A stretch of DNA of 64,000 nt. Origin: a virus. Lineage: Duplodnaviria; Caudoviricetes. The DNA is taken from IMG/VR virus record IMGVR_UViG_3300036783_000080, positions 64,001 to 128,000 of that record; one strand, written 5' to 3'. Below, one piece after another: positions 11,156-55,366 of this stretch. Below the pieces are notes generated by a model that saw only the letters and a program-made list of their open reading frames with translations, made no database searches and was not told the DNA's origin. Position 1 is the first letter of the stretch, and every line of letters begins with the position of its first letter. A program made the translations under genes and the position numbers.

Positions 11156-11228
11156 TTGACTATTGGAACATACTATTATATGATTGTTCTTGTAAGCCAC
11201 TAATCAAGTAGGAAAAGGAGCGATTGGG
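11156..11228 (+). promoter_or_regulatory. early sigmaA-type promoter plus leader
   Basis: TTGACT-17-TATGAT, TTGTAAG, CACTAATCAAGTAGGAAAAGGAGCG. Confidence 0.85.
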
Positions 11229-29895: not shown

Positions 29896-29924
29896 ATTAT
29901 AATATATCTTGTCCCTTATTTCAA
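29896..29924 (-). promoter_or_regulatory. sigmaA-type early promoter
   Basis: TTGAAA-17-TATAAT, TTGTAAG leader. Confidence 0.8.
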
Positions 29925-29950: not shown

Positions 29951-32482
29951 TTATTTCTTTTTCTTATTGCCCACGCTCATTAACAAAAGCTCATCCTCAA
30001 GTATAGCTTCTTGTACTTCTTCTATCGGCTTTCCATACTTCGTTAAACATTCTTTGATATATTCAGAATTGTCATATACTTGTAACCCACGTTTGTATGG
30101 TAAATCGTTCATCTTAACTCGGATAACTGGTTGATTCTTCTTATCTGCCAATACTCCAACCATAGCTTCATGCATTTTAAGCTCCATACAGTCTTCTAAA
30201 CTGAAATCTGGTTCAATACGATGCAAGAACTTCTTCCATAACTTATCACTATTTTGTTTTAATACAACAAAGTTACAACCAGAAGATATCATTATGTCTC
30301 CTAAATCTTTAGGAATCTGTGCGAAGTCGTGGAATAAACTAAACACACATAATCCGAACTTTCGTGACTCTGGATAGATTTCTTCAAGCGTTGAAGCTAA
30401 TGATTTAGTAAGGAATTGATGTGGCTCGTTCATTACAAGATAGGATTGACAATACTTTCCTTGTCGCTTCATAGCTTGTTTTGCCAACCAAGTCTTAACT
30501 GTTAACCAATGAACCAAAGTTCTTATCCCTGTTGAAGTGAATATATCTTTCGGAACTTTACAAATAATAACCTTCCCATCATACAACCATTCGTCAAAGT
30601 TGATAGAGCCATCACCTTGTTGTCCAAAGATAACTTTTAATGCTGGGTCACCGACAAGTTTGTGTAAGCGATTCAGGATTGGGTCGGCAATCTGTTTCTT
30701 TCGTCCATCTCCAATCTCTTGATAGAGCTTCCAGAAAGCCGCTGTTGAGATGTCTTTTCTCTTTTCGCAGTCAGCTATTGTCTTTTCAAGGAACTCAGGA
30801 GATGTAAACATTAAGCCCATCTGAATAACTGTTCCATTTGGTAATGCTTTCGCCGCTTCTCTCAAATAACGTTCCGTTTGAACGCCAGCTTCATCCTCTG
30901 TTTCAAAGAACTTCACCAATTCAGAAGCGAACTTGTTTTGTGTAAATCGGTCTTCCGTTCTCATTGCCTCAACCCAATCTAAATACGGCACATACTCTTC
31001 ATTTCCGAAATCTAACACTACAAGCTTCTCTGGAGGTAATGTTTTGATAATCGCATCCGACATCCCTCTGTCAACTTCGTCAACTACGTCCAATATAACC
31101 GCCCCTTTACCCATCAGAGCGTTTTCAACTATAAAGTTAGCGGCGAACGTATCTTTTCCACTTCCCATAATACCAGAGCTTATAATTGGAAGCATAGCTT
31201 CATCAGGATTATCAGCAGGAAAGAACGTTTCAAACTCTTCTCCTTTATAGGAAGTTTTACCAAGGAAGACTCCAGTTGGTTTCAAGAACACATCAGGAAT
31301 CCCAACTTCAGACCTTTGTAGCACATCCATTTTATCTCCATAAATCTTCTGAAGCTTTGAAGTTGGAAGTTGCATAACCTTTCCCAGCTCTCTATCACAC
31401 ATTATCATATAATCTGTATCGGCTACAGATAGCGGCGTCACCTTATGTTCACTTATTTCTTTATGAGCCATTTTAAAGAAAGAGCTTGAAGGATTCTCAT
31501 ATATAGTCGTTCTTATGAGAGCGTTGTTGGAATCCTTCAAATCATCAAAAGCATTCGTCAAAGATTTCATATTCATCGTTCTTCTCACTTCATCTGTACT
31601 ATGACTTGCTACACGGATATTTGCTTTGAATACTGGAGCTGTCTGTTTATATCCAGTTTGTCTTGAAATCCCTCCCACTTCTCTTGTCTCTGCTGAAGCG
31701 TGGTTGACAACTATTTGTTGAGTTTTCTGTTTCTTGAACGCTATTGAATGAAGCTCTCTAAACATAAGAGACAATTTATGGAAAGCTATGTCACTCAATC
31801 CAAATAACGCTCCTATGACTCCATCTTTGGTGATTCTTAATCTTATTGGAGCTTTACCCTTCAATGTTTTCTTATGCCACTCTTCGCACTTGTAAGACCA
31901 GTAATTCATATCAGAGGGTTTAACCCTCATAGAGAACTTAAGTACGTCACCTTCTCGGATATCTTCAGAGCAAGCCAGTACATCTTGTACTGGTTGAGCT
32001 TGCTCCCCATAATCCGTTTTAATACTGAAGAAGTTATGTCTTTGTAAATTCATATCGGCTATGGTTGTATCATCATAAGGAATCGCTGTTTCAGAAACAT
32101 CAACCTCCTCAATTGGAGCTTTCGGAAATGATTGTGTAAGTTTTAATAGTACAAAATCAGCATTCTCTTCGTAGCAGACCACATAGAAGCTTATTTCATT
32201 TTCTTTCATCATTATCTCATACCATATATAGTCTGTGGACGGTTTGAATACCATTTTGTACCCTTTCTTTTCCTTCTTCATAAACGTATCAGCCACTAAA
32301 TTCTTCACGCCGCTCGTTACTTGTTGCATAACGTTCTTACTTTCTAGTTCAGCCACATCCTTGAAGAACTTATAGTTGGAGTGGTTTGTTATGGACTTAT
32401 CTGGAACAATTTTAAAGCAAACCAGATTCTGTTTCTGTACTTCAAAGAGTTGAGGAATACTTCTCCAATTAGTTGAACTCAT
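29951..32482 (-). CDS. VirD4/TraG/HerA-like P-loop ATPase
   Basis: GIMGSGKD Walker A, AVILD, PILNRL, YLVMNEPHQF Walker B, ESRKFGL. Confidence 0.75.
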   Translation of the reverse strand: MSSTNWRSIPQLFEVQKQNLVCFKIVPDKSITNHSNYKFFKDVAELESKNVMQQVTSGVKNLVADTFMKKEKKGYKMVFKPSTDYIWYEIMMKENEISFYVVCYEENADFVLLKLTQSFPKAPIEEVDVSETAIPYDDTTIADMNLQRHNFFSIKTDYGEQAQPVQDVLACSEDIREGDVLKFSMRVKPSDMNYWSYKCEEWHKKTLKGKAPIRLRITKDGVIGALFGLSDIAFHKLSLMFRELHSIAFKKQKTQQIVVNHASAETREVGGISRQTGYKQTAPVFKANIRVASHSTDEVRRTMNMKSLTNAFDDLKDSNNALIRTTIYENPSSSFFKMAHKEISEHKVTPLSVADTDYMIMCDRELGKVMQLPTSKLQKIYGDKMDVLQRSEVGIPDVFLKPTGVFLGKTSYKGEEFETFFPADNPDEAMLPIISSGIMGSGKDTFAANFIVENALMGKGAVILDVVDEVDRGMSDAIIKTLPPEKLVVLDFGNEEYVPYLDWVEAMRTEDRFTQNKFASELVKFFETEDEAGVQTERYLREAAKALPNGTVIQMGLMFTSPEFLEKTIADCEKRKDISTAAFWKLYQEIGDGRKKQIADPILNRLHKLVGDPALKVIFGQQGDGSINFDEWLYDGKVIICKVPKDIFTSTGIRTLVHWLTVKTWLAKQAMKRQGKYCQSYLVMNEPHQFLTKSLASTLEEIYPESRKFGLCVFSLFHDFAQIPKDLGDIMISSGCNFVVLKQNSDKLWKKFLHRIEPDFSLEDCMELKMHEAMVGVLADKKNQPVIRVKMNDLPYKRGLQVYDNSEYIKECLTKYGKPIEEVQEAILEDELLLMSVGNKKKK

Positions 32483-33020
32483 GACTAATCACCCGTATGA
32501 TAGCACCCAACGCCCAAGCCATCATTCCCCACACATAAGGTTTTCCGTTGCCCCAAGCCATCGTTAGTATGAAGCAGCAAAGACCTACTGTTGTCAACGC
32601 TAAAGGACTGACTTCAAGTGTCTTAATAAACAACCAGTGAAATCCGTCTAACATCGCTTGACCTACTGGAGCAAATATTGAGTTGATAACTCCTCCATCG
32701 TTTTCAGCTATGTCTTTTATGTTATGAACGTGCTCATTTAGAAACCCTTGCGGGATTGTTACGTGTGGTGCGGTTGGGTCTACAAGTATTTCTGTTCCAT
32801 CTGGAGCTGAAGTTGCTTCTGGTATCTTAAATTCATGTAATGGTGGCGGCTCTGGGTTTGGTTGTAGTATCTCTGAAGGAGATGGAAGTGTTGGAGATAC
32901 TGGTTGACTCCCGTGAAGGTTGAAGTTGAATGGGTTACTGTTTTGTACAGGCGGCTGTTCTCTTAATGGTGCCAAAGCAATTTTAATCGTATGGAATCCG
33001 CTTTTCATTTCAATCACCAT
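32469..33020 (-). CDS. proline-rich membrane protein
   Basis: Pro-rich N-terminus, two C-terminal TM helices. Confidence 0.7.
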   Translation of the reverse strand: MVIEMKSGFHTIKIALAPLREQPPVQNSNPFNFNLHGSQPVSPTLPSPSEILQPNPEPPPLHEFKIPEATSAPDGTEILVDPTAPHVTIPQGFLNEHVHNIKDIAENDGGVINSIFAPVGQAMLDGFHWLFIKTLEVSPLALTTVGLCCFILTMAWGNGKPYVWGMMAWALGAIIRVISHEFN

Positions 33021-33097
33021 CCTATTATTAGTCTAACGATACTAATGATAATTCCACCAACCATAAGAAATTCAGCAATAAGTTTTACCTTTTTCAT
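33014..33097 (-). CDS. 27-aa single-TM peptide (not in ORF track)
   Basis: MKKVKLIAEFLMVGGIIISIVRLIIGW, AAGGAG RBS, overlaps next start. Confidence 0.65.
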   Translation of the reverse strand: MKKVKLIAEFLMVGGIIISIVRLIIGW

Positions 33098-33108
33098 TTT
33101 ATCTCTCC

Positions 33109-33528
33109 TTATAGTTGATTTAAGAAACCAATCCAAGCATCTACTTTTCTTGTTGTAATGTAACCAAGAGATAACCAGAACAATCTTTCCATCCCAATCT
33201 TCCCGTTACCAGTCATAATTGCGATACCAGCAATCATACCAAAGATTTTCGCTATTGGGTCAAGAAGTTCCAACAATTTATTTATAAGATGTTCCCATCC
33301 AACTTCTGAAGATGCGGCAACAGTCGTTACTGCCGTTGTAGCGGCGTATACTGCTAATGGAGGTACGGGAGCGTGGAAGATAGCGATAGTTGAAACAACG
33401 CCAACCTTGAATGCTAACTTGTAAGCGTTTTTCTTTCTTTCAGCTTTCTTGATTTCCTTCTTATTCAAAACCACTTTCTCCCCACGACAGAATGATTTGA
33501 AGTCTAACACTTCTTTATGCTTTTTCAT
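33109..33528 (-). CDS. membrane protein, VirB2/TrbC-pilin-like topology
   Basis: basic N-terminus, signal-like helix ending AVYA, two short hydrophobic helices with IMTGNGK loop. Confidence 0.5.
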   Translation of the reverse strand: MKKHKEVLDFKSFCRGEKVVLNKKEIKKAERKKNAYKLAFKVGVVSTIAIFHAPVPPLAVYAATTAVTTVAASSEVGWEHLINKLLELLDPIAKIFGMIAGIAIMTGNGKIGMERLFWLSLGYITTRKVDAWIGFLNQL

Positions 33529-33626
33529 TTTTTCTTCCCTCCAAGTTTGCTCTTTAGTATTAGGTAAGTCCCAAAGCTGACTGAAGCAAATCCCGTCAGA
33601 TACACCGCAACTCCTACAATAGTCAT
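33525..33626 (-). CDS. 33-aa single-TM peptide (not in ORF track)
   Basis: MTIVGVAVYLTGFASVSFGTYLILKSKLGGKKK, GGAGG RBS, ATGA overlap. Confidence 0.65.
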   Translation of the reverse strand: MTIVGVAVYLTGFASVSFGTYLILKSKLGGKKK

Positions 33627-33714
33627 TTTATCCCTCCAGTAATCAGTTGCTTAATATAAGATACGTTGTGGGTGCGTCCTATATTCCGCTTTATTTTAAA
33701 ATTTATTTTTAGAC

Positions 33715-33838
33715 AAAAAGAAAGGATTCCCGTTGATTACAGGAATCCAAGTATATCCACCAAGTGAGGGCAAAGTATCTCTAAAGACACCCGCTTAAAA
33801 GCAAGTGTATTCGCACGCTCGTGAATTCAACCCCATCT
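33715..33838 (-). ncRNA. candidate small RNA
   Basis: TTGACT-16-AACAAT upstream, internal hairpin, terminator GGATTCCTG/CGGGAATCC plus T-run, no RBS-led ORF seen. Confidence 0.4.
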
Positions 33839-33876
33839 ATTGTTAAAGTTTTTTGCAGAAAGTCAAAATTCAGGTC

Positions 33877-33936: not shown

Positions 33937-34011
33937 ATGGTAGCAGGAGTGGAGTACATTATCATAGGCTATGTCCTCATGGCCATTGGAGAGTTCATAA
34001 TTAAACTTTAA
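33937..34011 (+). CDS. 24-aa hydrophobic peptide (not in ORF track)
   Basis: MVAGVEYIIIGYVLMAIGEFIIKL, AAAGGA RBS, terminator at 34019-34050. Confidence 0.55.
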   Translation: MVAGVEYIIIGYVLMAIGEFIIKL

Positions 34012-34031
34012 ATAAAACAGGAGCAACTTCA

Positions 34032-34310
34032 TCAGTTGCTCCTTACTTTTTCTTTCGCCGCTATTTGATTTAAGAGAAGTTTTCCCCAACGATTTAAAAC
34101 GATTCTTTTTGCCACCGCATCGTTACTTACTATCTCAACCGCTTTAAGGAGAGAATACTTTTGTTTCAAGCCGCTCGCAAACTCTTCCTTCATGTTTACG
34201 TAATCTTTTGTTATTGTATCTAATCCTTGATTTATTAAGGAAGTTCTGTCTTTTGTATCCATAATGTATGTAGCACCAGTATTCTTATTCATAATTGTTA
34301 ACGTAAACAT
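34032..34310 (-). CDS. hypothetical early protein
   Basis: AAAGGAGCG RBS favours ATG 34310. Confidence 0.7.
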   Translation of the reverse strand: MFTLTIMNKNTGATYIMDTKDRTSLINQGLDTITKDYVNMKEEFASGLKQKYSLLKAVEIVSNDAVAKRIVLNRWGKLLLNQIAAKEKVRSN

Positions 34311-34393
34311 ATTAACCGCTCCTTTTTCCACTTGGTAATTGTTCTTTATTAACTTACAAGAACAATCATATTATAGCTTGTCCCAATAGTCAA
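34311..34393 (-). promoter_or_regulatory. early sigmaA-type promoter plus leader
   Basis: TTGACT-17-TATGAT, TTGTAAG, CCAAGTGGAAAAAGGAGCG. Confidence 0.85.
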
Positions 34394-34435: not shown

Positions 34436-35086
34436 TCATCGCTCTCTTCTCGGTACTTCGAACTTGAACAATACATCGTCTTCTGTCTCAAGTTCTTTTA
34501 TATTCTCCAGTAAGATATCCATTTGTTTCAGATTCTCTTCAATCTCCAAGTTCTCCTCTTGAAGCTCCTGTTGTTGTCGTAGCTTCTTAACAAGAAAATG
34601 AAGCCTAGTGTGGATTGTACTAACGTTGACACCCTCTTCTTCCGCTAGTGAGTGAACGCTTCGTTTATCCCGTAGGATGGACAAGAACAGTTGTTTCTGT
34701 TTCTTTCCCATACTGAAATCATCGTCCCAGCTTAGTATGTTTATTAAATCTTCCAATTCATCCCGTTCTTCAAAACAATCTTTACCAAAAGTTATTTCAT
34801 CGTTGGTAAAGCCTTCAACAACCGTTTCATTCTTTCGCAGTTTAATCGTCTTTGTAATAAAATGATATGTCCTTAGTTCTAACATTCGCTTGATATAGAA
34901 AGGAAAATCAACACCCACTCGTTTATTATATTCAACCACCAGTTTGGCGAATATACTGTTGATTTCTGACATTAAGTCCTCTTTGTCCTCAAGCTTGCTA
35001 AACATTGGATGAAAACGTTTATATGTGGCTAGAATTAAGGGACGGTACTTTTTCATCAGTTCCACGATATCCTTCATAGTTACCAC
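34436..35086 (-). CDS. RNA polymerase sigma70-family factor
   Basis: KYRPLI...EDLMSE...EYNKRVGVDFPFY region 2; HTH SVHSLAEEEGVNVSTIH region 4. Confidence 0.8.
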   Translation of the reverse strand: MVTMKDIVELMKKYRPLILATYKRFHPMFSKLEDKEDLMSEINSIFAKLVVEYNKRVGVDFPFYIKRMLELRTYHFITKTIKLRKNETVVEGFTNDEITFGKDCFEERDELEDLINILSWDDDFSMGKKQKQLFLSILRDKRSVHSLAEEEGVNVSTIHTRLHFLVKKLRQQQELQEENLEIEENLKQMDILLENIKELETEDDVLFKFEVPRRER

Positions 35087-35400
35087 TCCAATAATTCGAT
35101 TGTGTCCATTCCACAGAGTACTGAAGCATAGTTTACTGAAAAGTAAAGATATCCTCTTTCACCCTCCAAATTGAACGTTTCCTTCTTTAATAATACGTGA
35201 TGTTCATACGTCTTTTCGATTAAAACAAGTTGCGGCTGTTTGATATTGGGATTTTGTTGAGTTTTCCAAATAGCTATCTGTCCCACTATTTGCTCAAATT
35301 GATTTCTGTACATACCATAAGTGACGTCAGCCTGTGTCTTTCCTTTTATGGAATAGACATCTTTGTATGACTGTTCTAGGATTTCTTTTAAATATCCCAT
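35080..35400 (-). CDS. hypothetical protein
   Basis: 106-aa ORF in operon. Confidence 0.65.
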   Translation of the reverse strand: MGYLKEILEQSYKDVYSIKGKTQADVTYGMYRNQFEQIVGQIAIWKTQQNPNIKQPQLVLIEKTYEHHVLLKKETFNLEGERGYLYFSVNYASVLCGMDTIELLEW

Positions 35401-38975: not shown

Positions 38976-40070
38976 CTACATTGCACTTAATGTGTCATAA
39001 TATTTCTTTGCTTCATCAGGATTCTCTTTCAAGAATACACGTGCATCCGCTTTACGATACTTTTTACCATCAATTTCATACCAACCTGATGAAGTTCCAA
39101 AGATTCCTTTTTCAAGTCCTTTATCAAGTAATGCACCCATTCCATCAATACCTCCATGAATTGGGTCGAACACGATGTTGAATTCAGCTTTCTTAAATGG
39201 AGGAGCAACTTTGTTTTTCTTCGCAGTCGTAATACATTTAATCCCAGCAACTTCGCTTCCTTCTTTGTACTGACCAATTTTAATAACTTCTAAACGTATA
39301 GAAGCATAGAACTTCAACGCACGTCCACCAGGAGTGCTTGTTTTCTCACCGAATGTAACGCCCACTTTGTCACGTACTTGGTTAATACACATGAAACAAA
39401 TCTTTTGAGTGTTGATTAATGGATTAATCTTTCTGAATCCCTGAGACATAATACGTCCGTGAACACCCACATTGTGGTCTCCATAGTCACCTTCAACTTC
39501 AACCCTTGCAGCAGTAGCGGCTACTGAATCCCAAACAATTAAAACTGGTCTATCTGGGTCTTTCTTACGAATTGTACCGATAATCTCCTCAATAAATTCA
39601 AACACATCCTCCATCGTTTCTGGCTGTGCATAAATCATCTTCTTGAGGTTAACGCCAATTGTCTTCGCACGGTTTCTATCAAGAGCGTGCTCAGTGTCTA
39701 AGAAGATAGCAATTCCACCCATCTTTTGTATCTCAGCAATAGCGTGTAATGCAACAGTTGTTTTACCGTTAGACTCTGGACCATATAATTCAACAACACG
39801 TCCTAGTGGCCATCCACGTCCACCACTTAACACGTCATCAATATCAGGGTGTCCAGAAGGAATCCAACCGTTAACTTGCGCATGCGTAGCATTTTCTAGT
39901 GTCATGGCAGCTCCAGAATCCTTCTTGTTCAAATCGACAATTATGCTACTAATTAGGTCATCATCTTCGTCATCTTCAGCATCTTGAAGCTTATCGGCGG
40001 CATTGGACTCTTTTTTGACTTTAGTAGTATCTTTCTTTGTGTCTTTAGTGATTGGTTTTCTTGTTACCAT
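38976..40070 (-). CDS. recA: RecA-family recombinase
   Basis: GRVVELYGPESNGKTT, DTEHALD, INQVR, TPGGRALKFYASIRL, KNKVAPPF. Confidence 0.95.
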   Translation of the reverse strand: MVTRKPITKDTKKDTTKVKKESNAADKLQDAEDDEDDDLISSIIVDLNKKDSGAAMTLENATHAQVNGWIPSGHPDIDDVLSGGRGWPLGRVVELYGPESNGKTTVALHAIAEIQKMGGIAIFLDTEHALDRNRAKTIGVNLKKMIYAQPETMEDVFEFIEEIIGTIRKKDPDRPVLIVWDSVAATAARVEVEGDYGDHNVGVHGRIMSQGFRKINPLINTQKICFMCINQVRDKVGVTFGEKTSTPGGRALKFYASIRLEVIKIGQYKEGSEVAGIKCITTAKKNKVAPPFKKAEFNIVFDPIHGGIDGMGALLDKGLEKGIFGTSSGWYEIDGKKYRKADARVFLKENPDEAKKYYDTLSAM

Positions 40071-41939: not shown

Positions 41940-42564
41940 TTAACTTGCTTTTGCGTGGTCTTTCAAGTTCTTCTCGTGTTTCTTCTGCCATTTTTCGTCA
42001 ATGTAATCGAATACATTGTCATACTCATCTAAATCTTCCAATTTGTTTAATCCAACTAAATCTCCATAGTTACGTCCAATCTCAATATCCGCAACTAATG
42101 GAACATTAATCCAATCAAAGTGAGGATATTCCATAATTCCTTTTACAATCTCAATAACTTCCTTAAGTTCTGGAATGTAAACATCAAGCACAATACTATC
42201 GTGTACTGTAATAACAATCATTGACTTCATTCCAAGTTCTTTTAACTTCTTGTCAATCTTAATGAGCGATGTTACTGTAATATCTGAACCTGTAGATTGA
42301 ATAGGAGCATTTACAGCCTGTCTCATACAATCTCCAACGATACTACGTTTGTTTGAGTCAACACCAGGAAGCCTTCTATGACGTCCTGTAAGCGTTTCTA
42401 CATATTTATGCTTCTTAACAAATTTGGCTGTATCGTCAAGCCATTTCTTCACACCAGAGAACTCAGTGAAGTACGCATCAATGAACTCTCTCGCTTCTTC
42501 AACAGATACTTTCATATCTTGTGCTAGTGAATATTCACCTTTTCCGTAAATCAAGCCAAAATTT
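41940..42564 (-). CDS. polA: family A DNA polymerase, exon 2
   Basis: NFGLIYG (motif B), AVNAPIQST, TVHDSIV (motif C). Confidence 0.92.
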
Positions 42565-43514
42565 CAATATTTATATATTGTATAAGCATTTAACTTACAC
42601 ATTCTATATGTTTCCATATAGTTTAGACTATATCTTCACCGTAAGGTGCTGGGCACTCGTGGATGGATTATCGTTTTGCCTAACTCACCATCTAGTCGTT
42701 GAACCTTCTCCATACTTTAAAGGCTTTCAGGAGCTTGGATGCTGATTGTCCAATCATCTTGTTTTTCAAACATTCACGTTTACCGTTTCCAGTTACGTTG
42801 TAGTACAAGAAGCTCTAAGGAGTTTCCAGCAATTCACCCAGTTTATTTAAAAGGCTGCAAATTATATATTGGCTATTATTGTTCCATCTTCTCCTCTTAT
42901 TATGTGTTCGTTATGATGACAAGGTTTGCAAAGTATCTCAAGGTTGGAAAGCTCGTTGTTGTCTCGGTTTCTATCCTTGTGATGTACGTCTAAAGTATGC
43001 AAATCCCCATCTTTCCCGCAACGATTACATTTATGAGAAAAGTTTTCGAAAGCGAGCTTTCGATATTTAGAAATATTTTGACAAAGGTCACAACGTTTTT
43101 GATTGTTACCTGTTTTTGTAAAATGTTTCCCACAGGTTGGACATTTAATGAATGGCACTCTATATATTTTGTATGACTGGTCTCTTCTGTTATTCACTTT
43201 ATTTCGACACTCACTGCAATACTTCTGGTTGTAAGCTGAAGGGTTGAAGTCTCTTTTACATTCGTTACAAGAGACTACTTTGTCCAATAGTCTCCCCTTT
43301 TGACTTCTCCCTTTTTTCTTTCGTTCTTCTCTACACGTATTGCAGTATTTTTGAGTTCCAATCTTCGCTTTAAATGTCTTTTCACAGTTTTTACAAATTT
43401 TGTCGTATTTCGCCACATCAAAAGTTCTAATCATATTTGTTCTCTTCATCATTATCACCTCATAGTTAATATGAAAGTAATATAGAGAACAAAAGCCAAA
43501 GATTTATTTAGCTT
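42565..43514 (-). mobile_element. group I intron, 950 nt, with HNH ORF in the P1 loop
   Basis: P AATTGCTGGAAA, Q AATCAGCA, R GTTCAACGACTAGA, S AAGATATAGTCT; U.G-ended P1, terminal G; splicing restores KAVNFGLIYG. Confidence 0.92.
42862..43458 (-). CDS. intron-encoded HNH homing endonuclease
   Basis: multiple CxxC ribbons; DVHHKDRNRDNNELSNLEILCKPCHHNEH. Confidence 0.88.
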   Translation of the reverse strand: MIMMKRTNMIRTFDVAKYDKICKNCEKTFKAKIGTQKYCNTCREERKKKGRSQKGRLLDKVVSCNECKRDFNPSAYNQKYCSECRNKVNNRRDQSYKIYRVPFIKCPTCGKHFTKTGNNQKRCDLCQNISKYRKLAFENFSHKCNRCGKDGDLHTLDVHHKDRNRDNNELSNLEILCKPCHHNEHIIRGEDGTIIANI

Positions 43515-54155: not shown

Positions 54156-54623
54156 TTATTGATATGTTTTCTTTAAAGCCATAATAAGTCGCATTTTGTG
54201 AATGGCTGGACTTTCATAATGCTTACAAGTTCCGCCACGAGCTTCCAATAGGTCTTTAAGCTCTTCAACACTCATACCTTTAGTGTTTGGCATTCCTTCA
54301 GGGATTTCCTGCTGTTTCTTCTCTTTTTTCGGCTTCTCTTGTTTCTCTTCAACAGGAGCGGCTTCCACTTCTTTCTCTTCTGGTTCTTGCGGCTGAGTAG
54401 GGAATGGAACTTTTGGTTTGTTCGCTTCCGCATTCTTCAATGCCTGTTCCGTTTCAGGGTTGAGTTTCTTCATATCGTTGAACACGCTGTTCGATTTTGT
54501 CTTGGCTGCGCATTCCTGTTGTAAGTCGCACATCTTACATTCTTTCACCGTTGGTTCAAAAGCCTTTCCAAAACAAGGTGAACTTTCCATCTGGTTTAAT
54601 AAATCTGGGTCTGTAAATGCCAT
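54156..54623 (-). CDS. Cys4 metal-binding protein with C-terminal HeH-like module
   Basis: CFG...ECKMC....EC; MSVEELKDLL...MRLIMALKK. Confidence 0.55.
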   Translation of the reverse strand: MAFTDPDLLNQMESSPCFGKAFEPTVKECKMCDLQQECAAKTKSNSVFNDMKKLNPETEQALKNAEANKPKVPFPTQPQEPEEKEVEAAPVEEKQEKPKKEKKQQEIPEGMPNTKGMSVEELKDLLEARGGTCKHYESPAIHKMRLIMALKKTYQ

Positions 54624-55366
54624 TACGCAATAACCTCTCTTTCCTTGTTTATAACAAGTTCTGTAATAAACTTTATCTCTTTAATTGCATTGTCGAATTG
54701 TTTAGATGTAATACCAAGAGAGTCACGAATATGTTTGTATTTAACTTCAGCTTTACGTGGCAAGTTTACCTTTTTGCCTTGGTCACGTAAACATATTTTT
54801 CTTGCTCTATCTGCCCAAGAGTGCCACAATGTTTTAGGTGATGGATTAATAATCTCACATAAAACAGCGATAGCTATGTCTGAATCAAGATTGTCTCGAA
54901 TTTCTGCTGTCATTCGGTCATAACCTGATTCCACTTCATATGTAGGTGCTTCCCCAGTTGTTAAAAGAGCGGTTTCAAGGTCGTTTTCTCTTCTTGGCTT
55001 CGCCGCATCTTTAATCGCACGATACAGCGAAGTAGTAAATAACATTTTGAATTCTTCAATAGGAAGATGGTTATACTTGTCGTAAATGTCATACAGTTTA
55101 ATAATGCCAATTTGATACAAGTCTTCAACACTCAGAGATTGGTCAATGTAATTGGCTCTATCCAGATAGACTTCTTTCGCTGCGTGTTTTACCAAATTAA
55201 CGAACTTCGCATAAACAAAATCCCACTCCAACTTTGGTCTGTCCCCATGTTTGTTTTTCATAATGATGGGGATTCTCAGAATTTTCCCACTTTCATCCAC
55301 TGTTGGTTTCTTTTTATCTCTGTTAATGATGATTGGGATTCTCATAATAGTTCCGCTCTTGTGCAT
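54623..55366 (-). CDS. divergent sigma-factor-like protein
   Basis: VEDLYQIGIIKLYDIYDKY...F...FTTSL region 2; C-terminal HTH KHIRDSLGITSKQF. Confidence 0.6.
   Translation of the reverse strand: MHKSGTIMRIPIIINRDKKKPTVDESGKILRIPIIMKNKHGDRPKLEWDFVYAKFVNLVKHAAKEVYLDRANYIDQSLSVEDLYQIGIIKLYDIYDKYNHLPIEEFKMLFTTSLYRAIKDAAKPRRENDLETALLTTGEAPTYEVESGYDRMTAEIRDNLDSDIAIAVLCEIINPSPKTLWHSWADRARKICLRDQGKKVNLPRKAEVKYKHIRDSLGITSKQFDNAIKEIKFITELVINKEREVIA

Follow-up and report, generated by a model that had tools for sequence, protein, structure and literature searches.

A 64,000-nucleotide (nt) stretch of viral DNA (the window; positions 64,001 to 128,000 of IMG/VR record IMGVR_UViG_3300036783_000080) was found to contain a cassette of five minus-strand genes, which probably encodes a minimal machine of the type IV secretion system (T4SS) kind that builds a pilin filament or conduit. 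The DNA of the region was found to be 90.7% identical to that of Bacillus phage Nachito (Herelleviridae, Spounavirinae), and the window can thus be assigned to an SP-10/Nachito-like Spounavirinae phage, the whole genome of which comprises 150,650 bp. The cassette contains, in gene order, a 33-amino-acid (aa) peptide with a single transmembrane (TM) segment, a 139-aa protein resembling VirB2/TrbC pilins, a 27-aa single-TM peptide, a 183-aa membrane protein and an 843-aa ATPase (Table 1). The sizes and places of the five open reading frames (ORFs) agree with those of the first-pass annotation, which had been made from the sequence alone and had read the locus as a stripped-down, membrane-associated T4SS or FtsK-HerA-type machine with a pilin-like protein and an ATPase and without a relaxase; this outline of the locus was borne out.

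Of the four junctions between the five ORFs, taken in gene order, the first, third and fourth were found to be overlaps, of 4, 7 and 14 nt, and the second a gap of 11 nt. The earlier count of three overlapping junctions out of four holds with the 183-aa start, whereas only two overlap when the second ATG at 33008 is used, which yields 179 aa and is the start in the Nachito annotation. The 27-aa ORF would be 40 aa long if the TTG at 33136 were taken as its start. Shine-Dalgarno sequences were present ahead of the 33-, 139- and 27-aa ORFs. The position of the 33-aa gene was found to be occupied by TM peptides of 32 aa in SP-10, 35 aa in LysYB1 and 31 aa in YungSlug, the last of which is present in the annotation, and the position of the 27-aa gene by TM peptides of 30 aa in SP-10 and about 22-43 aa in LysYB1. 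Both small ORFs were taken as genes because SP-10 and LysYB1, with ATPases about 60% identical, keep TM peptides at these positions.

The AlphaFold (AF2) model of the 843-aa ATPase (predicted local distance difference test, pLDDT, 90) was found to contain two domains, namely an N-terminal domain (about residues 1-392) resembling that of VirB4, followed by a P-loop domain of the FtsK-HerA type (about residues 395-803). In a Foldseek search with the full-length model, TrwK/VirB4 of R388 ranked first. The C-terminal domain (395-803) was aligned with Thermoanaerobacter VirB4 (4ag5) at a Z of 27.8 and a root-mean-square deviation of 3.6 over 339 residues (VIA-align). The N-terminal domain was also modelled by itself (pLDDT 88), and its eleven best Foldseek matches were all TrwK (E 7e-5 to 6e-3), with no other significant match. 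In an exhaustive VIA comparison of this domain with 48,161 chains, TrwK/VirB4 (7o42_A) was found at a Z of 15.2 over 251 residues, followed by a chain at 9.4 and the rest at 7.4 or below. The assignment to the VirB4 type was made because the N-terminal domain is closest to TrwK/VirB4. This domain is of the alpha/beta kind, the N-terminal TM anchor expected of VirD4 was not found in it, and no TM segment was detected anywhere in the ATPase (maximum Kyte-Doolittle 19-mer 1.39). The ATPase is thus predicted to be VirB4-like in both domains and to be neither a VirD4-type coupling protein nor HerA. The first-pass annotation had called it VirD4/HerA-like; the P-loop of the FtsK-HerA type stands, whereas the VirD4 identity gives way, since the fold is of the VirB4 type in both domains and the Foldseek comparison proposed for deciding between VirD4 and VirB4 favours VirB4 (TrwK). 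A VirB4-like ATPase rather than a coupling protein points to the extraction of pilin and the assembly of a filament, and away from the direct pumping of DNA.

At the sequence level, the ATPase was found to match phrog_5156, the function of which is unannotated (E 5e-210), and 1502 relatives were recovered when 1.8 billion representative proteins were searched. Eighty full-length relatives were aligned, and the residues K279, E365, K443 and E686 were invariant among them. The Walker A motif of the 843-aa protein was found to be G437-IMGSG-K443-D444 and the Walker B motif N685-E686, with K443 and E686 as the catalytic Lys and Glu, so that the atypical GSGKD and NE motifs are present where they had been placed by the first reading. 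The pair GK[TS] with DE was found in 64 of the 80 relatives and the pair GKD with NE in the other 16, mixed pairs being absent; GKD with NE was also present in SPP1 gp32 and in SP-10. The GKD/NE pair thus appears as a lineage trait and a perfectly coupled swap, which suggests an intact ATPase site, and we infer that the Mg-binding carboxylate has moved elsewhere rather than that the site has decayed. When the profile of the 80 sequences was compared with the PDB, HerA-like proteins (TdpA, DptH, HerA) came first, followed by DotL, TrwB and VirB4. These matches place the P-loop domain in the FtsK-HerA superfamily, and together with the structural alignment of the C-terminal domain they agree with the FtsK-HerA membership on which the first reading had depended. 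The curated models CagE_TrbE_VirB and AAA_10 of Pfam and those of NCBIfam did not match the ATPase, and ten of its relatives gave no family of Pfam or NCBIfam at E up to 0.01; the protein is VirB4-like by fold and is not a VirB4 member by curated sequence models. The sole match of a phmmer search of the PDB, to DnaC, was rejected as chance.

The 139-aa protein was found to contain a basic N-terminal end, a signal-like TM segment at residues 42-60 with VYA/A at its end, and a mature part that is about 75 residues long. The mature part contained a hydrophobic window at residues 86-106, followed by the loop TGNGKIGMER and, as read from the sequence, by a second hydrophobic stretch at about 116-126 (LFWLSLGYITT). 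This is the layout of a VirB2/TrbC pilin, with a long leader, a putative cleavage site, two hydrophobic helices and a short charged loop. The 29 relatives of the protein were 45-66% identical to it overall, and their last 60 residues were almost invariant. The Pfam family TrbC/VirB2 (PF04956) matched 22 of the 29 below its curated cut-off (best E 3.7e-5), the 139-aa protein itself at a sub-threshold E of 0.078, and SPP1 gp31.1, which is collinear with it, at a sub-threshold E of 0.1. One relative from JGI bears the name VirB2 pilin, and the language-model neighbours in the Atlas were clusters of TrbC and T4SS_pilin, at scores below 0.9, and of DUF3852 and DUF4134, all of which serve as leads only. 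The sub-threshold matches in most relatives, along with the layout, agree with the pilin-like character given to this protein by the first-pass annotation, and it may be regarded as a VirB2/TrbC-pilin-like protein on sub-threshold evidence.

The 183-aa protein was found to be 75% identical to its Nachito copy, against 97% for the ATPase, and evolves fast. A homologue search gave only the Nachito copy and a 179-aa record of 100% identity, and no family was found for the protein in Pfam or among the named Atlas clusters. By alignment, its C-terminal hydrophobic hairpin is common to a 117-aa protein of SP-10, a 99-aa protein of LysYB1 and SPP1 gp31.2, the position of which the 183-aa gene occupies. 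The counterpart in YungSlug (294 aa; 32% identity, E 2e-21) was found to contain a Peptidase_M23 domain (E 1.5e-25) followed by the same linker and anchor, whereas the 183-aa protein lacks the enzyme domain, which was lost or never present, and retains the proline-rich linker and the anchor. Cell-wall hydrolases are part of Gram-positive T4SSs, in the form of PrgK, CwlT and TraG of pIP501, and PrgK contains a LytM/M23 domain; the YungSlug member resembles these as an M23 peptidase placed on the same anchor as the 183-aa protein, which itself differs from them in lacking the enzyme. By analogy, an M23 hydrolase tied to the module would fit an apparatus that crosses the Gram-positive wall, and this link points to an envelope-crossing structure. 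A complex prediction for the N-terminal domain of the ATPase and residues 95-183 of the 183-aa protein gave a score of 0.00, which says nothing either way.

The search for the operon in other Bacillus phages, which had been suggested as a check, turned up tblastn homologues of the ATPase, and the 109 phage records that contain them come almost entirely from Bacillus and its relatives. Among the homologues are SPP1 gene 32 (E 2e-84), SPO1 gp27.4 (E 4e-32) and 0305phi8-36 ORF201 (E 6e-15). The gene order was found to be kept in SPP1, SP-10, LysYB1, YungSlug and two metagenomic contigs, of which one, from a siphovirus, contained a ParM-like gene upstream of the core and the other contained only genes of 119, 105 and 850 aa. 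In SPP1, gp32 has been proposed to form a trans-membrane translocon with the TM proteins gp31.1 and gp31.2 (Godinho et al. 2018, PMC6316719); the same study found gp32 non-essential and counted genes 31.1-32 among those of the early unit PE5. Like the present cassette, SPP1 has, in the same order, genes for a pilin-like TM protein, for a protein with two TM segments and for an ATPase of about 840 aa that lacks such segments, with 26.5% identity between the ATPases; it differs in being a siphovirus, in the early unit PE5, in having no annotated tiny TM peptides and in a two-TM protein of 105 aa that lacks the proline-rich half of the 183-aa protein.

A 'DNA translocation operon' with a relaxase-like orf200, the ATPase orf201, a VirB6-like gene and an MreB-like gene has been described in 0305phi8-36, its relative in SPO1 being gp27.3, gp27.4 and gp27.9, and 0305phi8-36 with the operon deleted grew without a defect under laboratory conditions (Pathria et al. 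2012, PMC3357382). The ATPases of both phages are homologous to the present one and small TM proteins lie just upstream of them, whereas the MobC-type relaxase-like and ParM/MreB-like genes found there, and the VirB6-like gene that 0305phi8-36 has in addition, are lacking here. No homologue of SPO1 gp27.3 (relaxase-like) or gp27.9 (ParM) was detected in the 150,650-bp genome by tblastn at E up to 1, so that the earlier observation that no relaxase adjoins the cassette extends to the whole genome. The authors of that study regarded the ATPase as a coupling protein, whereas its fold is here predicted to be that of VirB4. The locus thus appears to be the bare core copy, in this phage, of a known Bacillus-phage module. 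The presence of the module in SPP1, SPO1 and 0305phi8-36 was already noted in the literature. New here are the VirB4-type character of the N-terminal domain, the pairing of the two Walker changes, the fusion of an M23 domain to the anchor in YungSlug, the conservation of the tiny peptides, among them one that is coded divergently, and that of the dedicated promoter motif.

The module also resembles the VirB2-VirB3-VirB4 core of R388 (TrwL/TrwM/TrwK) in the two-domain VirB4 fold, in a pilin-like partner made up of a leader followed by two hydrophobic helices, and in a small TM protein gene that lies upstream of the ATPase gene and overlaps it. Unlike conjugative T4SSs, it lacks VirB6, VirB8, VirB10, VirD4, a relaxase and membership in the sequence models, and its carrier here is a lytic phage of a Gram-positive bacterium. 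Beside the ATPase, only the VirB2-like gene and small TM proteins were found as partners, and none of the VirB3, VirB6 or VirB8 type. In the archaeal Ced system, the VirB2-like pilin CedA1 and the VirB4/HerA-like ATPase CedB belong to a very small gene set that moves DNA. By description, the present module is like Ced in joining such a pilin to such an ATPase in a small set, and differs from it in the polytopic channel protein CedA. That so small a set can move DNA would allow the module to act as an importer or exporter, through which the phage genome would complete its entry or DNA would pass from one cell to its neighbour, and the MobC-type relaxase-like and ParM-like genes beside the SPO1 and 0305phi8-36 ATPases and the ParM-like gene of the siphovirus contig lie in the same direction. 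The lack of relaxase and ParM homologues in this phage, the lack of a VirB6/CedA-like polytopic channel protein and the normal growth of the 0305phi8-36 deletion speak against such a role, which is regarded as unlikely.

In the probable T4SS-like machine, the steps of assembly, the transport direction and a cargo, be it phage DNA, protein or none, are what we infer from the folds, motifs, synteny and conservation described above. The soluble ATPase would form a hexameric ring on the cytoplasmic face of the membrane, where the small TM partners would hold it, and the 183-aa protein, translationally coupled to the ATPase, would act as a VirB3-like adaptor, its family providing a link to the wall. 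Driven by ATP, the ATPase would extract the pilin-like subunits from the bilayer and build from them a filament or conduit that passes through the envelope, with the assistance of local cell-wall cleavage in some lineages.

Several results weigh against this reading. No member of the module has a demonstrated function. The absence of VirB6-, VirB8- and VirD4-like genes means that a complete channel could not be built from these genes alone, and the 183-aa protein gave no VirB3 signature. The pilin assignment is carried by sub-threshold matches, and a pilin profile gave no match to solved pilins by sequence. For the ATPase, the T4SS models of Pfam and NCBIfam gave no match at E up to 0.1, HerA-like proteins rank above VirB4 by sequence profile in the PDB, and the Z values of the C-terminal domain for HerA (25.8), DndH-C (25.7) and TrwB (24) lie near that for VirB4, a gap too small to decide alone.

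A function in competition was also considered, in which the membrane pilin and peptides, together with the ATPase, block or eject the DNA of superinfecting phages or disturb the competence or conjugation machines of the host. A single phage grown in the laboratory does not require the module, as would be expected of a competition function; the module also lies in an early unit in SPP1 and is widespread in unrelated Bacillus phages in a mosaic, moron-like context. Against this, the known exclusion proteins need less than a two-domain ATPase of 843 aa and the wall hydrolase present in one lineage. This role is improbable as well, and stands first among the rival roles, with exclusion of competing DNA ranked above Ced-like import or export of DNA and the latter above entrapment in the forespore.

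The VirB2/VirB4-type module is present in more than 100 Bacillus phage genomes, including those of the tractable phages SPP1, SPO1 and SP-10, and is among their larger conserved unknowns. If a lytic phage does build its own secretion-type filament, this would add a new kind of interaction between phage and host or between cells.

Table 1. Features of the cassette, its surroundings and related loci. Positions are those of the window unless another sequence is named (G000, whole genome of this phage).
Feature	Position	Strand	Remark
33-aa single-TM peptide, operon gene 1	33525-33626	-	Shine-Dalgarno GGAGGG
139-aa VirB2/TrbC-pilin-like protein	33109-33528	-	phrog_5422
27-aa single-TM peptide	33014-33097	-	ATG start, Shine-Dalgarno AAGGAGAG
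183-aa membrane protein, proline-rich N-terminal half, hydrophobic C-terminal end	32469-33020	-	from first ATG
843-aa VirB4-like ATPase	29951-32482	-	phrog_5156, predicted fold
Promoter-like motif GGAATA-N16-CGTATCT-TATATTAAGC	33649-33687	-	22 nt before first start codon
Twin motif GGAATA-N17-CGTATCATTTATTAAA	G000 39476-39513 (L011 3477-3514)	-	23-32 nt before start
Terminator-like hairpin, 10-bp stem and T-run	33724-33748	-	cassette side of spacer
Divergent 24-aa TM peptide MVAGVEYIIIGYVLMAIGEFIIKL	33937-34011	+	followed by bidirectional terminator of the sigma operon, 34019-34043
Near-consensus sigmaA promoter TTGAAA-17-TATAAT	29896-29924	-	directly 3' of ATPase stop codon
gp34-like sigma factor adjoining cassette (SP-10 late sigma g200)	34436-35086	-	
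Accessory gene of gp34-like sigma factor (SP-10 g199/g200 pair)	35080-35400		
Sigma factor homologous to SPO1 gp28	54623-55366	-	
SigB/F/G-family sigma factor	G000 41967-42731 (L011 5968-6732)	-	E 2e-22, counterpart of SP10 g120
YungSlug M23-anchor gene, between pilin-like and ATPase genes	L014 2021-2905		294 aa

Two clear promoter classes were found in the genome, namely an extended sigmaA type (CACTTGACTATTGG...TATATGAT) and a middle type of the gp28 kind (AGGAGA-N17-CGTTTTATTA). Neither a sigmaA-like nor a middle-type site was found at the cassette, as the first-pass annotation had noted, and the GAATA-16-CGTATCTTA element to which it had drawn attention is present at 33686-33657 on the minus strand. 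The pattern GGAATA-N16/17-CGTATC-N-T-N-TATTAA was found exactly twice in the genome, each time at about 30 nt before a start codon, with 0 occurrences expected by chance. The second copy was found ahead of two ORFs, of 86 and 315 aa; it is on the same strand as the gene for the SigB/F/G-family sigma factor and lies some 2.5 kb downstream of that gene. The flanks of the two copies were unrelated to each other. Upstream of the YungSlug cassette, GGAATA-N23-TATATTAAGC was present with the same spacing in DNA that was otherwise dissimilar, and GGAATA was also kept upstream in SP-10 and LysYB1. The motif is real and not a product of chance. It was rejected as a copy of the gp28-type middle promoter, of which the genome holds many, with the AGGAC box 3-4 nt too close and four extra bases in the -10 element, and the SPO1 late consensus CGTTAGA-N18-GATATT did not fit the cassette.

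The same motif had been taken by the first-pass annotation as a loose sporulation-type promoter. According to that proposal, a sporulation sigma factor of the host (E, K, F or G) switches the operon on, and phage DNA is moved or tethered into the forespore, resulting in a virospore. The cassette does lack sigmaA and middle-type promoters, and GAATATA-N14-CGTATCTT matches the -35 element of sigmaE fully and four of the five best-conserved -10 positions of the consensus. The -10 element of sigmaE/K promoters has a near-invariant CATA, and both copies of the motif were found to contain CGTA in its place, with G for the near-invariant A, whereas the -35 element fits sigmaE/K. At relaxed sigmaE/K stringency, 11 sites as good were found in the genome against 6.2 expected by chance, so that the motif is weak as a sigmaE/sigmaK site. 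VirB4-type ATPases are not known to act as DNA pumps, unlike SpoIIIE/FtsK, and this was counted against a forespore role. Lytic Bacillus phages do become entrapped in spores, and the Par-like genes beside SPO1 gp27.4 have been linked to this speculatively (PMC12991052); the homologous genes 31.1-32 of SPP1 belong, as stated above, to an early unit in vegetative cells (PMC6316719). Nothing tested here points to switching by a sporulation sigma factor, and the proposal is rated as very improbable.

The phage was found to encode three sigma factors of its own (Table 1), and a host sporulation sigma factor is not needed for a promoter outside the sigmaA type because these are available. The motif of the cassette is most likely read by one of them. 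SP10 g120, the counterpart of the SigB/F/G-family member, is non-essential and its targets are not known (PMC9429907). The cassette and the operon at the twin motif might form a small regulon of this sigma factor that serves a spore-linked or cell-to-cell step, which is an improbable reading; if it is true, the phage would use a 'sporulation' sigma factor of its own to switch on a VirB2/VirB4 filament or conduit, for a step such as the entrapment or transfer of its genome. The conserved dedicated motif, together with the three phage sigma factors, offers a direct route to the time at which the module is used.

A strong early sigmaA promoter at 34393-34365 was found to drive a 99-aa gene upstream of the cassette, followed by hairpins at 34043-34019 and 33748-33724 that lie between this promoter and the cassette and would insulate the latter from early sigmaA transcription. 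No sigmaA-like site was detected between the hairpin at 33748-33724 and the first start codon. The early promoters (603-632, 2229-2257, 11156-11184, 34365-34393 and others) were found to share an unusually long conserved core, CACTTGACTATTGG-N-...-TATATGAT, after which TTGTAAG and a conserved leader with AAGGAGCGGTTG at its end often come.

The minus-strand stretch at 33715-33870, poor in ORFs and lying between two terminators, was found to contain a weak TTGACT-16-AACAAT site and a strong terminal hairpin, and could encode a small RNA. The 300-nt insulated spacer gave no match in Rfam or tRNA scans, and its predicted fold was marginally more stable than that of shuffled sequences (z -1.96). 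The divergent 24-aa peptide has homologues of 21-26 aa in Nachito, SP-10, LysYB1 and YungSlug, which are likewise coded on the opposite strand at the corresponding place and share the pattern E-x-[IV]-[IV]-I-G-x-x-L-M-x-[IV]-G; it is a real, conserved mini-gene and may be a sixth member of the module.

The neighbours of the cassette were found to include genes for DNA ligase, recombination, nucleotide metabolism and a sigma factor, the last with a small accessory gene, and almost all of the surrounding genes lie on the minus strand. The sigmaA promoter that follows the ATPase gene begins a separate unit for ORFs of 72 and 112 aa, and a terminator was not detected in the stretch that separates this promoter from the ATPase gene.

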